NCBI GenBank assembly: GCA_030614005.1
Contig: JAUWKS010000006.1
Coordinates: 1 to 32,000 of the forward strand
DNA length: 32,000 nt
Source: Candidatus Heimdallarchaeota archaeon
GTDB taxonomy: Archaea > Asgardarchaeota > Heimdallarchaeia > JABLTI01
Reading direction: 5' to 3'
Part shown: piece by piece, positions 15,321-19,940 of the stretch
Position numbering within the stretch: position 1 is the first letter of the stretch
Layout of the letters: each line of letters begins with the position of its first letter
The notes under the pieces: generated by a model
Database searches by the model: none
What the model was told of the DNA's origin: nothing
Seen by the model: only the letters and a program-made list of their open reading frames with translations
Position numbers and translations under genes: made by a program

Positions 15321-15360
15321 CACCTCTGGAAAATTCCGAGGTGAAACCTTATTTTTTTTA
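15321..15360 (+). terminator. Hairpin plus T-tract between convergent genes
   Basis: CACCTC-T-GGAAATTCC-GAGGTG (15321-15342) followed by a T run, 7 nt after the pmbA stop. Confidence 0.55.
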
Positions 15361-16380
15361 TCTTTTGCCGCCACATTTAGAGCATATATGTTCGTATTTT
15401 TCAAATTTCTCATTGCAGAATGGACATTCATAAATGAAGTTGTAGTCTTCCGGTAAATCTTGAGCTGGAGGAATTATTTTACCATTCTCGTCACTAATGG
15501 TGTTTTCATCATTTTCTTCGTCTTTCTCAATAGTGCTATAATCTATTTTACTATATCTTCTTCTAACATAGATAATACTAATTAAGATTAGACTGTAAAT
15601 CCATTGAAAACCAAACGATGCACCAAAACCTACCAAAAAATTCTGAAAGAATGAATAACCAATGGCCATATTTGACTCTTTTAAGGTTGCTGTAAATGCC
15701 ATCACACTTGAAGATGAAACTGATTCTAAAGTTACATTATACTCAATCATAAATCCATGTTTAGCCGAATAAACAAGATAAAAATGTCCATTGAAACTTT
15801 CACCAAAATGTGACTGAGCTACCTTTCCCTGGAAAATATAAACATCTACCCAAGCGCCTTGGAATGGATATTTCGTGTGATGTGTAGAATTTCTTTGTGG
15901 TATTGTTGTGATAGTAGGACTATGAAGATAGAATTCTTGTTGTTCTTTCCAATTGACATTAATCATAGATATTGGAGCAATAATGTCTGCAACTGTTAAA
16001 GTAGCTGCAGTTGAATGACTTCCTGAAGTTCCAAGAGGCAACATTTTCATAGCATCATTTGGATTAATGATTGGTGTTCTAATTCTATGACTACTATCTG
16101 AATAATTTAAAATGAAATTACCATCATTTTGAACTTGATAAACATCAAGATCAAACTCTCTAATATTCCTAAAAGCCACTACTTCGAAACCAACGTAATC
16201 GGTTCCAGTATAGTTAAAATCCCATTTAAAAGCGCTGCCTGCTTTTATGCCCCCTACTACCCTTGCTCCTTGAGTATCTGTTACAAAGGAAATTGTTGTA
16301 CCTACTCCTAAACAAATCAAAATTACCCATGCTGTTCTTATTATCGCTTTATGTCGTTTCATTTCTCCCAAATTCCACAA
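15358..16380 (-). CDS. Membrane-anchored surface protein with C-terminal cytoplasmic Zn ribbon
   Basis: N-terminal hydrophobic helix, beta-rich ectodomain, TM (FLVGFG...IIYV) then RRR, acidic linker, CPFC-x10-CSKC; start could be ATG 16362. Confidence 0.75.
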   Translation of the reverse strand: MWNLGEMKRHKAIIRTAWVILICLGVGTTISFVTDTQGARVVGGIKAGSAFKWDFNYTGTDYVGFEVVAFRNIREFDLDVYQVQNDGNFILNYSDSSHRIRTPIINPNDAMKMLPLGTSGSHSTAATLTVADIIAPISMINVNWKEQQEFYLHSPTITTIPQRNSTHHTKYPFQGAWVDVYIFQGKVAQSHFGESFNGHFYLVYSAKHGFMIEYNVTLESVSSSSVMAFTATLKESNMAIGYSFFQNFLVGFGASFGFQWIYSLILISIIYVRRRYSKIDYSTIEKDEENDENTISDENGKIIPPAQDLPEDYNFIYECPFCNEKFEKYEHICSKCGGKR

Positions 16381-16474: not shown

Positions 16475-17308
16475 TTATTCTTTCAAATCCATTTCTTTTA
16501 TTAGTTTGTTCATTCCATGAAGATATTTTAAAAGATTGTTTTTAATAGAATGAATATCGCTTTGAATTTCTATAATTTCTGCTTTAATATTTTTAATTTC
16601 CAAATCAATGATCTGTATTTTTTTCTGCAAACCAATTGTACTTATTTCATTTAACTTCTCCACTTCATTCGGAGCCTGGTAAGCTTTCCTAATTTCAGTG
16701 CTTTTCTTTTCTTTTCGTATGTGGAGATCTGCTGCTAATTTCTTAATTTGAGGTGAGTTTTTACCTGCCTCTAAAAGTAACTTTCCGGTTATTTTATTGA
16801 ATAATAGGTCTATATTTTCTCCAGTCAATGCACTGGTGCTAATATGTAAGATGTCATGACCCATCTCCTTTGACAAATTTTTTAGAAAATTTTTGAGATA
16901 ATCATCATCTGTTTTCTTTCTGTCTACCAAATCGTTTTTATTGCCAACAACAACAAATGTTTCAATTGAGCCATTACTATTCCTTTTGACTTCTTTAACC
17001 CACTTTGGCAAGTTTAAAAGTGTTTTATTATCTGTAATATCATAGACCAACATTGCTGCTTGAGATCCTGAGTAAAAGCTTGCACGAACTTTATCGAATT
17101 TTTGCTGCCCAGCGAGATCGAAAATTTGGTATTGAACTGTTAAATTGTCTGACAGTTTTATTCGCTTGGTTGCGAAATCTGCTCCGATAGTATAAATGTA
17201 TTCCTTTATTGTAGTTTCCCCTAAATATTTTCTTCTTATACTTGTCTTACCAACAGCAGGGTCACCAATAATTACAATTTTCCAAACTAATTTTGCCAAC
17301 TTTATCAT
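16475..17308 (-). CDS. Rab-like small GTPase with C-terminal coiled-coil extension
   Basis: G1 GDPAVGKT, G2 T(IGADF), G3 DLAGQ, G4 NKND, G5 SAL; about 95 aa tail with heptad repeat. Confidence 0.93.
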   Translation of the reverse strand: MIKLAKLVWKIVIIGDPAVGKTSIRRKYLGETTIKEYIYTIGADFATKRIKLSDNLTVQYQIFDLAGQQKFDKVRASFYSGSQAAMLVYDITDNKTLLNLPKWVKEVKRNSNGSIETFVVVGNKNDLVDRKKTDDDYLKNFLKNLSKEMGHDILHISTSALTGENIDLLFNKITGKLLLEAGKNSPQIKKLAADLHIRKEKKSTEIRKAYQAPNEVEKLNEISTIGLQKKIQIIDLEIKNIKAEIIEIQSDIHSIKNNLLKYLHGMNKLIKEMDLKE

Positions 17309-17331: not shown

Positions 17332-18069
17332 CTATAATTTTAACAATCCTTTGATTTCTTTTAGCTTTTCATTTTTAACTCTAATCTCATTTTTTAATTT
17401 ACTAATTAATTCATTTTGTTCATTTATTGTTGTATTTAAATGGTCTACTTTTTCGCTTAAGTTCTGCAGTCTAGAAATCTTTTCTTCTAAAATACTACTT
17501 AACTGTTCTAGATTAGAATCTGTAGCATTAGAATTTGCACCTGCATTTTGTTCACCTTTTTCAATAAGAGCAATTCTTGCTTCTAAATCTCTAATCATAT
17601 CGTTCTTCTCCTCAAGTTCTTCTTGCTTTTGAACGATTTTATCTTGAAAACTTCTTCCTAATTGATGTTGAACTTCAATGTTTTCTTTATCTTTCTTTCC
17701 AGTCATGCTTCGTAAACGTCTAAAATCTCTATCTCTGATATGTAGTTCTTGTTCAAGGTTGGTTCGTTCTAAACCAAAAGAATGAAGTTTTTCATCAAGT
17801 ACCCCTAATCGGTTTACCAACGCTTCTGTAGATTTTGGATCAAGCTCTTCTTTGTTGTTTTTTGTTTTGGATAATCCATGATACCACTCATAGAATACAT
17901 CTTGTGCTAGTGGATGAAGATTCGACCAATTTGTTACCAGAATTACCCAGAAATGAGCTCCTGGAATGTCTGGGTCTATTCTTTCTGAAGGGGGTTTTAC
18001 ACTTTTAGGATTTCTTCGTTTATAGTTAGGAAGTGAATCCCACAAAGTGGGATTGTTAGATGAATTCAC
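17332..18069 (-). CDS. Coiled-coil protein with aromatic N-terminal head
   Basis: About 165 aa E/K/Q/L-rich heptad region split by EQNAGANSNATDSN; GTG start; ends 23 nt before the GTPase start. Confidence 0.8.
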   Translation of the reverse strand: MNSSNNPTLWDSLPNYKRRNPKSVKPPSERIDPDIPGAHFWVILVTNWSNLHPLAQDVFYEWYHGLSKTKNNKEELDPKSTEALVNRLGVLDEKLHSFGLERTNLEQELHIRDRDFRRLRSMTGKKDKENIEVQHQLGRSFQDKIVQKQEELEEKNDMIRDLEARIALIEKGEQNAGANSNATDSNLEQLSSILEEKISRLQNLSEKVDHLNTTINEQNELISKLKNEIRVKNEKLKEIKGLLKL

Positions 18070-18156: not shown

Positions 18157-18924
18157 TTAATTTAAAATATTAAAAGTTTTTTTTGCATTGTCAAGAGTAA
18201 CCTTTGCTACTTCTTCTTCATCAATTTCTTTTAATTTTGCGATTTCTTTCACCGCGTAGATAACGTATCCCGGTTCATTTCTTTTAAGTTCTGGGAACGG
18301 TGATAAATAAGGTGAATCTGTTTCAGTTAGTATATGTTCTAATGGTACACTCTTAGCTAGTTTGCGATATTTTTTTCTATTAGTAACCGCTGTTGGAATA
18401 GAAATAAAGTATCCTCTATCAATACACTCTTGTGCTGTTTCAACTGTCCCTGAAAAACTATGCATAATAACAGGTACTTCCGCTGTTTTAAGATCCTCAA
18501 CAGCTTTAGCTTCTGCATCTCTACTGTGGATTACTAAAGGTAACTGTATTTCATTTGCAAGGTCAATAAACCTTTGAAAGGTTTTGCTCTGTTTCTCTCG
18601 GAGATCTTGGTCTTTAACCCAATAATAATCTAATCCTACCTCTCCTATAGCAACAATTTCCTTCTTTTCGCTGTAATACTTCATCTGTTCAATTATTTGG
18701 TTGATGTTTAATTCATGATATTGCGCTGGAGGTACTCCTAGAGTAACAAAAATATTTGGAAATTGTCTGTGATATTTAATGGACTGGAGGTAATTTTCCA
18801 CATCAACAGGTGAATCAATGAAGGCAATAACTCCTTTTTCATCTGCATATTTCAAAATATTGCTTAGTTTTGCACCACGTTTTATTATGTGGTGTATGTG
18901 GCAGTGAATATCTATTGCTTTCAT
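18157..18924 (-). CDS. tatD: TatD-family nuclease
   Basis: DIHCH, AIGEVGLDYYW, IHSRDA, MHSFSG, ETDSPYL. Confidence 0.95.
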   Translation of the reverse strand: MKAIDIHCHIHHIIKRGAKLSNILKYADEKGVIAFIDSPVDVENYLQSIKYHRQFPNIFVTLGVPPAQYHELNINQIIEQMKYYSEKKEIVAIGEVGLDYYWVKDQDLREKQSKTFQRFIDLANEIQLPLVIHSRDAEAKAVEDLKTAEVPVIMHSFSGTVETAQECIDRGYFISIPTAVTNRKKYRKLAKSVPLEHILTETDSPYLSPFPELKRNEPGYVIYAVKEIAKLKEIDEEEVAKVTLDNAKKTFNILN

Positions 18925-19940
18925 ACTGAACTCTTCTCGTAATCATTATTTAATCCTAACTTTGTTTTGTCAACTAAAAGCATTAAATGACCAAACCATG
19001 TACGCTGAAAACCCAATTTTTCATAAAGTTTGATAGCAGGAGCATTATTCTCATCTACTCCTAAAACAACTTCGCTAATTCTTTGCTTCTTCATCTTTGA
19101 AATATATTGATTTATCATATGCCAAGCTATTCGTTTACCACGATATTCAGGTAAAACACCGATTTCTAAAATCATTCCTTTGTTTTTTGTTGTTGCGGTT
19201 AATAATCCTGCACATAAATTATCTTTATATTTAGCAATTAAGCAGTTTACTTCAAACCCTAATGATTCAAAAATTTCTTTTGTACGATTCAGAAAGGATT
19301 CTGTAACTGCAGGATCTCCAAGGTTTTCAATTTCGTGAAGTAAATCTTTTGAATTGCTATATGCTTGACTAATAATATTGATCATTTCAGTACTAATTTC
19401 ATTTGAAGAAAATATTTCTATGTCATTTCTAACCTCATTTTTCTCTGCAGAAAAAAGAGATGTAGAACAATTCATTTCCAATCGATATGATTTACTTTCA
19501 AAACCTATTTTTTCAAAAAATGAACGATAGCTATTGATTTCTTTTTTATTAAGAGCCCAGGATTCTGCCCAGATTTCCTTAATACCATTTTCATAAGCAA
19601 TTATAATTCCCTTTTTCACTAACTCTTTTCCTATTCCTTTTCTCTGATATCTTGGATGAAGTAGAGGGAAATGACTTATGATTTTGTTTGCTCCTGAAAT
19701 GAAGTAACTATCAAAACGTATTATACCTGCAGGGAAACCATCAACATAGGCGATAAGAAGCTGTTCATCTAAAGTTTTTGTTTTCAAATCTTCCAAAAAA
19801 GACATTTTTACATCATATTCAGTGATATTTAGTCTGTTGAGATATTTCTTCATCCATCTACAACTTTTCATTCCTTTAAGGAAAATTTCTGTCCAATCAT
19901 CTGCGTGATCTTCAGTAGCAGAGAAAATTTGTACATTCAT
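18921..19940 (-). CDS. Tandem GNAT acetyltransferase
   Basis: Two acetyl-CoA motifs (YQRKGIG; YRGKRIA) and VDENNAPAIKLYEKLGF; ATGA overlap with tatD. Confidence 0.88.
   Translation of the reverse strand: MNVQIFSATEDHADDWTEIFLKGMKSCRWMKKYLNRLNITEYDVKMSFLEDLKTKTLDEQLLIAYVDGFPAGIIRFDSYFISGANKIISHFPLLHPRYQRKGIGKELVKKGIIIAYENGIKEIWAESWALNKKEINSYRSFFEKIGFESKSYRLEMNCSTSLFSAEKNEVRNDIEIFSSNEISTEMINIISQAYSNSKDLLHEIENLGDPAVTESFLNRTKEIFESLGFEVNCLIAKYKDNLCAGLLTATTKNKGMILEIGVLPEYRGKRIAWHMINQYISKMKKQRISEVVLGVDENNAPAIKLYEKLGFQRTWFGHLMLLVDKTKLGLNNDYEKSSV

Follow-up and report, generated by a model that had tools for sequence, protein, structure and literature searches.

The window, the whole 32,000-nucleotide stretch of Heimdallarchaeota DNA that we analysed, carries a gene (16475..17308, minus strand; P0001) for a Rab-like (RasL) small GTPase of 277 aa with a C-terminal coiled coil, as identified from the ORF list and Pfam. 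We report here for the first time that coiled-coil-tailed GTPases of this type constitute one G-domain clade in five Heimdallarchaeia families, and that they probably belong to a two-gene module whose other member is the coiled-coil protein encoded next door. The isoleucine zipper singled out in the first-pass annotation of this DNA is not the conserved feature. With moderate confidence, we favour a reading in which the tail is parallel and most likely three-stranded, and makes the GTPase a multivalent switch that would bind its co-encoded coiled-coil partner, most likely through the switch regions. A literature search of incomplete coverage returned no description of the tailed GTPase architecture, the clade or the gene pair.

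The G domain (aa 8–177; 16778..17287, minus strand) was intact by Pfam and alignment, with all five Ras-type motifs (G1–G5) found and the catalytic Gln68 present. Pfam Ras matched aa 10–176 (E=1.9e-36, 125.5 bits); the same scan listed Roc and Arf, did not list the septin family, and contained no EF-hand, the G domain beginning at aa 8. The best solved relative was the Thorarchaeota Rab 7EZB (E=5e-30, aa 7–184), and a fold search placed Rab1, Rab8 and Rab11 at the top, with all of the top 50 hits being Rab-family chains. Aligned with a Rab11 chain, F1 and F5 were close or identical and F2–F4 divergent, Phe63 replacing the conserved Trp. Orthologues were found as one match per genome in 11/11 genomes of the query's own family. 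The homologues carry the label Heimdallarchaeota, and one related locus is record JABLTI01, a lineage that stands for Gerdarchaeota (PMC9723677). The genome thus belongs to Heimdallarchaeia (Gerdarchaeales/JABLTI01).

Conservation among the orthologues reached 95% in switch I and 93% in switch II, with 79% in the remaining G domain and 61% in the tail; such high conservation of the switches is as would be expected of a partner-binding surface. The orthologue alignment places Thr33 (17210..17212, minus strand), seven residues before the switch I Thr, at the position of the guanine-stacking Phe (Ras F28). Thr33 is invariant in 51 orthologues, and Phe occupies the position in sister clades. Loss of the F28-type Phe leads to fast cycling in Rac1 (PMC9029563), and Thr33 may likewise give the query fast intrinsic nucleotide exchange. 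Beyond the G domain, the AlphaFold2 model and the consensus define an extra helix (aa 186–201; 16706..16753, minus strand), followed by a variable disordered linker (approximately aa 202–224; 16637..16705, minus strand) recognized by pLDDT and column conservation. Column conservation over aa 178–226 was 48%, and AlphaFold2 gave residues 197–224 a pLDDT <50 in a monomer model with a pTM of 0.60.

The coiled coil spans aa 227–276 (16481..16630, minus strand) in seven heptads, according to its register, AlphaFold2 and a three-copy model described below. The zipper noted previously corresponds to its first 33 residues (aa 227–259; nt 16630–16532, minus strand), and inspection bore out that positions 1, 5, 8, 12, 15, 19, 22, 26, 29 and 33 are L, I, I, I, I, I, I, I, I and L. 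The register runs 227 d, 231 a, 234 d and onward to 259 a, and the heptads continue past this point with Y262 (d), M266 (a), L269 (d) and M273 (a); the zipper is two heptads longer than first reported. AlphaFold2 predicted a single helix from 227 to 276, with pLDDT 76–88 over residues 231–270.

Eight consecutive a/d positions of the query tail are Ile. Runs of at least eight Ile at 4-3 spacing were present in two of the 2,941 ORFs of the genome, including the query, where composition would give approximately 0.013; the other ORF resembles a hydrophobic membrane helix, and the query is the only one among soluble ORFs. The Ile zipper is real, and not a product of chance. We considered a general Ile bias as its cause and rejected this, as there was no protein-wide drift and the G-domain Ile share of the query is the same as that of its orthologues. 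All eight Ile were found in 1/51 aligned orthologues, namely the query. Ile fills 22/24 d cells of the six closest proteins, and among the 45 more distant orthologues Leu is found in 120/180 d cells and Ile in 108/180 a cells. The heptads themselves are kept in all 51 full-length orthologues. We propose that the tail was already of the trimer type before the all-Ile core arose in it, recently and in one lineage.

A tail-only profile searched against 1.84 billion proteins yielded one full-length match, apparently an orthologue fragment, and the other matches were generic heptad repeats, indicating that there is no separate tail family. Comparison of the tail with solved sequences gave nothing below E=0.17, and an Atlas feature search gave no usable tail match. 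We also noted a 153-aa ORF (G000:C9:82032-82493) with an Ile- and Leu-rich heptad run of 11 positions at its N-terminus, styled like the GTPase tail.

The tail had been interpreted as standing in place of a prenylation motif, and this interpretation does not hold. The protein does end in DLKE without a Cys, as had been stated, and there is no Cys within the last 10 residues of any of the 51 orthologues. None of the 34 Ras-family matches in the genome has a CC, CXC or CAAX end, and most of them end <20 residues past the G domain with no tail. Asgard Rab-like GTPases lack the terminal Cys and the prenylation enzymes altogether (PMC10933270; PMC4917890): Thor-Rab has no Cys and neither an escort protein nor a geranylgeranyl transferase was found (PMC10933270), and among 109 Loki small GTPases none has a CAAX box and two have putative GGTase II sites (PMC4917890). 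Prenylation is not known for any Asgard Rab-like protein, and the tail therefore extends a protein that had no lipid anchor to replace.

Rab-like proteins were gathered from seven more genomes of the class, and trees were built on the G domain alone. In a quick tree of 169 rows which, like our other trees, had no outgroup and no eukaryotic rows and contained many rows chosen by likeness to the query, the tailed GTPases grouped together (SH-aLRT 95) in a clade that also included two exceptions, a partial protein and a short-tailed one encoded on a 912-base contig. A further G-domain tree placed 33 tailed and 44 short rows on separate sides of a branch supported at 92/92, and the difference between tailed and short proteins amounted to one change in 94% of bootstrap trees. 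Among the families of the tailed clade are Kariarchaeaceae and Heimdallarchaeaceae, the latter with a row that matches a Heimdallarchaeum aukensis protein exactly. Judged by frame lengths and fetched loci, the best matches from six genomes of a further family included no tailed GTPase; this family is probably Hodarchaeales, and the partner gene was found in none of its 22 genomes searched.

The query genome encodes three members of the clade, the query and two with longer tails, one of which ends in a zinc ribbon. Tailed paralogues at L165:1120-2361 (G000:C30) and L179:1669-3339 (G000:C63) combine a coiled coil with a long acidic region; the zinc ribbon of the G000:C30 paralogue has four Cys, and its gene and a second partner gene copy are arranged head to head. 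Other extensions of Rab-like proteins were also observed. Two Rab-like G domains (G000:C73:30967-31461 and G000:C9:570-1052) are joined to C-terminal domains of thioredoxin-like appearance, the latter with a C-x-x-C motif. Rab-like GTPases of another Asgard class (L125:1297-2145, L126:1260-2072, L127:1316-2095 and L128:1349-2107), with two paralogues per genome, have a different conserved helical tail containing Cys and Trp.

The partner gene (17332..18069, minus strand) lies upstream of the GTPase gene and stops 23 nt before its start. Its 245-aa product comprises a conserved head and three long helices. The head (aa 8–70; 17860..18048, minus strand), with the motif W-x-x-L-H-P-L, marks the family in five Heimdallarchaeia families. 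A second motif, Q-x-x-L-G-x-x-F-Q-x-K (aa 129–149; 17623..17685, minus strand), is located in the coiled coil of the partner, where it is recognizable by eye in distant homologues across families, and represents a candidate binding surface.

The earlier suggestion of a link between the GTPase and the neighbouring coiled-coil gene is supported by gene order and by shared range. The partner is directly upstream of the GTPase in 10/10 loci of the query's own family that reach it. A search with the single partner protein reached only this family, reflecting the limited sensitivity of such a search; weak matches (E=1e-4 and 2e-5) at the equivalent place in two other families were used to build a head profile, which reached further. 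The head profile detected the partner family in 57/82 genomes, the same range as that of the tailed GTPases: 11/11, 29/30, 12/12, 1/1 and 3/3 genomes in the five families with tailed GTPases, 0/22 and 0/2 genomes in the other two, and no other Asgard family among the 250 genomes searched. One partner homologue is labelled Gerdarchaeota. The same arrangement, with the partner directly upstream of a tailed GTPase, recurs in 16/17 loci from Heimdallarchaeaceae and twice in a third family, and in the query genome a second paralogous pair consists of a partner copy head to head with a second tailed GTPase. Being linked, found over the same range and duplicated together, the two genes probably encode a working pair. 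No GTPase neighbour of the partner was seen in the fetched loci of Kariarchaeaceae and one further family.

The partner gave no sequence or fold match to Rabaptin-5, FIPs or Sec2/Rabin8. A fold search with its model, in which the head was barely probed, returned only long helices with Z ≤7, and an Atlas feature search returned generic coiled coils.

The surroundings of the pair vary. In Kariarchaeaceae-type genomes (L167-L176), the partner often adjoins a protein with a helix-hairpin-helix-looking start, and not a GTPase. Downstream of the GTPase gene in the window is a gene for a 340-aa protein (15358-16380, minus strand) that has a hydrophobic N-terminal stretch, a probable membrane helix and a zinc ribbon at the C-terminus; it follows the GTPase in six related loci, is missing in others and has no family match. 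Upstream on the same strand lie genes for a TatD nuclease and a tandem GNAT acetyltransferase (18157-19940, minus strand), and TatD is found beside the pair in all own-family loci reaching it. One relative (L003:2363-2809) has, after the GTPase, a small convergent gene whose start is longin/uDENN-like; in three genomes of a single family (L066:2313-3095, L177:3185-3973 and L178:2040-2837), the gene after the tailed GTPase is convergent and encodes approximately 260 aa. A scan for sigma-70 promoters, a model unsuited to archaea, was at chance level.

The first-pass annotation had derived a trimer from the presence of Ile at both a and d. A trimer is plausible, but the reason given for it does not carry over to the family, in which the eight-Ile core is confined to the query and most d positions are Leu. 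Ile at both a and d favours trimers, and Ile(a)/Leu(d) favours dimers (PMC3653964); with Leu in most d cells of the family, the GCN4 rule alone therefore points to a dimer. A second determinant, the hexapeptide R-h-x-x-h-E, has been described as specifying parallel trimers and is also found in some dimers (PMC3653964), and septin Cdc12, which carries it, is a dimer–trimer mixture (PMC13060782). In the orthologue alignment, the corresponding g-a-x-x-d-e hexapeptide occupies aa 230–235 (16604..16621, minus strand). Arg is found at position 230 (g) in 44/51 orthologues and Glu at 235 (e) in 44/51, with hydrophobic residues at a and d, and R-h-x-x-h-E stands in register in 39/50. The query has the non-canonical pair K230/D235, and its lack of the canonical Arg and Glu counts against a trimer.

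Many orthologues have Phe at the d position of R-h-x-x-h-E, which is outside the strict definition: the motif is present in 41/52 orthologue tails if Phe or Met is allowed at d, and in 20/52 if d is Leu, Ile or Val. It also occurs in 40/54 tails of more distant GTPases, with approximately two expected from shuffles. Because shuffling destroys the heptads, two harder controls were added, namely the reversed motif and other coiled-coil-like segments. Within 40 tail clusters, R..E was found in 71% and the reversed E..R in 5%, and each occurred in approximately 10% of 62 further coiled-coil-like segments from this genome; the tails share ancestry in one clade, so that these motif counts are not independent and reflect conservation, not repeated origin. 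At least two Ile at d were present in 8/11 proteins without R..E and in 1/39 with it. We considered whether Ile at d compensates for the lost pair and do not claim this, as there were approximately four events and an independent-pairs test was non-significant.

The complementary g–e' pairs R230–E235, E237–K242 and D251–K256 suit a parallel homo-oligomer. A three-copy model of aa 222–277 scored 0.74, with 0.01 for the best of three controls; the mark applied was reached by 20/30 proteins solved as pairs and 1/23 solved as single chains, a benchmark that is only rough for a three-copy job with its own alignment. Individual runs shared at least 94% of contacts, with pLDDT of at least 82. The modelled contacts were like-to-like at a and d (234–234, 241–241 and 248–248) and joined 237 to 242 and 230 to 235 across chains, giving a predicted bundle that is parallel, in register and in agreement with the derived register. 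The model supports self-association without choosing three strands over two, as three copies were the sole stoichiometry modelled, and its passing score may reflect solved Ile zippers that the predictor had learned. The a position at 266 is a polar layer (His, Asn or Gln) in most orthologues, which counts against a trimer. A polar a-layer is a dimer-type feature, established for GCN4.

These observations led us to favour a mechanism in which the tail acts as a parallel, in-register homo-oligomerization coiled coil, most likely three-stranded, that would hold three Rab-like G domains on flexible linkers of approximately 25 residues. The GTPase would thereby become a multivalent switch, a single G domain binding the partner weakly and three together binding it well. 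The partner encoded next door would be an effector, scaffold or regulator; binding would most likely occur via the switches, whose surfaces are highly conserved, and avidity would supply the local concentration. More tentatively, we speculate that the pair is an ancient Heimdallarchaeia two-protein module, in which a constitutively trimeric, GEF-independent GTPase is localized by avidity to its co-encoded effector without lipid anchors.

The most serious competing explanation is that the tail forms a parallel homodimer, or a dimer–trimer mixture, with the all-Ile core being tolerated drift. The Ile(a)/Leu(d) consensus of the 45 more distant orthologues and the polar layer at 266 are as a dimer would have them, and the mixture has its precedent in septin Cdc12. 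We nevertheless judge this explanation to be rather unlikely, given the strong preference for R..E over E..R and the Ile-filled d cells of the six closest proteins, which by the GCN4 rule would pack badly in dimers. Trimeric stalks such as reovirus sigma-1 (E=3e-4; a compositional lead only) are also among the closest solved look-alikes of the Kariarchaeaceae-type tail. Less probable again is a tail whose main job is to enter a mixed bundle with helices of the coiled-coil neighbour, which would thereby recruit the GTPase. Gene linkage and shared range would fit such a bundle, and the partner carries R-h-x-x-h-D/E in 41/53 sequences, with R87, L91 and D92 invariant; outward or flanking tail positions (L236, L260, L263 and L/I270) are conserved and hydrophobic, resembling a docking face. 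However, the g/e charges of the tail are self-complementary and the homo-oligomer model passes, the tail is less conserved than the switches, and tailed paralogues exist without an adjacent partner.

Two further alternatives were considered. The last two heptads could constitute an amphipathic membrane-binding helix that gains avidity from oligomerization and serves as a functional stand-in for a lipid anchor, in the manner of Asgard ArfR proteins, which bind membranes via an N-terminal amphipathic helix (10.1101/2024.02.28.582541). Residues 256–273 are indeed amphipathic (mean moment 0.47), their hydrophobic face is wider and their net charge is +3 in the query, yet the net charge of this segment is 0 in 26/51 orthologues, its hydrophobic face extends the same heptad and is buried in the three-copy model, and some clade members run on into long acidic regions; we regard a membrane helix as improbable. 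The tail of Ran folds back on the G domain in the GDP state, and a monomeric GTPase with a similarly folded tail would be the least probable of the arrangements considered here. The conserved helix 186–201 after the G domain could pack back, but the tail proper is a helix of 50 residues that has a narrow stripe of seven heptads and follows a disordered linker to which the monomer model gives low confidence, and it is the homo-oligomer model that passes.

The multivalent switch that we favour bears on how unprenylated Asgard Rab-like GTPases find their site of action and on what they bind. The proposed partners of these GTPases include roadblock, longin and DENN proteins; to these the present pair adds a coiled-coil protein, a different type of candidate, whose assignment as the cognate partner comes from gene order and co-duplication. 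Since GTPase and partner are both small and soluble, their oligomer state and nucleotide-dependent binding are directly measurable. If the mechanism is correct, the pair would represent a native Rab-like switch and coiled-coil partner working without lipid anchors. GTPases that self-associate by coiled coils already exist (Rab45 and septins), and to our knowledge no constitutively trimeric Ras-superfamily GTPase has been described. Given that the partner family and the tailed GTPases were both unseen in the probable Hodarchaeales family, the pair seems to lie on a side branch and not on the direct line to eukaryotic Rab–tether pairs.

We assign the GTPase to the Asgard Rab-like (RasL) group rather than to the eukaryotic Rabs: it has no Cys motif, and a published tree recovered no Asgard sequences as sister to Rabs (10.1101/2024.02.28.582541). 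In our trees the query groups with other Heimdallarchaeia Rab-likes, and it shares G1–G5, partly Rab-like signature stretches and the absence of a prenylation Cys with Asgard RasL proteins and Thor-Rab (7EZB; PMC10933270; 10.1101/2024.02.28.582541). Thor-Rab stops right after the G domain, whereas the tailed clade adds a linker and a coiled coil, and the Gerdarchaeales orthologues differ from Thor-Rab in having Thr for the F28-equivalent Phe.

The large Rabs Rab44, Rab45/RASEF and Rab46/CRACR2A also join a Rab-type G domain to a coiled coil, which in Rab45 drives self-association and localization (PMC8303950). Their order is EF-hand, coiled coil and C-terminal Rab with a prenylation site; in contrast, the G domain of the query is N-terminal and there is neither an EF-hand nor a Cys. 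The likeness appears to be an analogy, with no sign of common origin. The C-terminal domain of septin Cdc12, which forms parallel homodimers and homotrimers, provides another parallel, its coiled coil with R-h-x-x-h-E lying C-terminal to a GTPase domain (PMC13060782), although septins have their own G domain and filament interfaces and the query scores as Ras family. The tail itself recalls the parallel trimers of GCN4-pII and coronin-1 (PMC3653964), through Ile at a and d in the query and R-h-x-x-h-E in the family. Compared with these, the query has the first determinant without the canonical second, and most orthologues have the second without the first. Finally, Rabaptin-5, FIPs and Sec2/Rabin8 are eukaryotic Rab-binding coiled-coil effectors and GEFs, and the partner shows a resemblance, and only a resemblance, to such proteins in its long coiled coil, its conserved patches and its genetic tie to a Rab-like GTPase.
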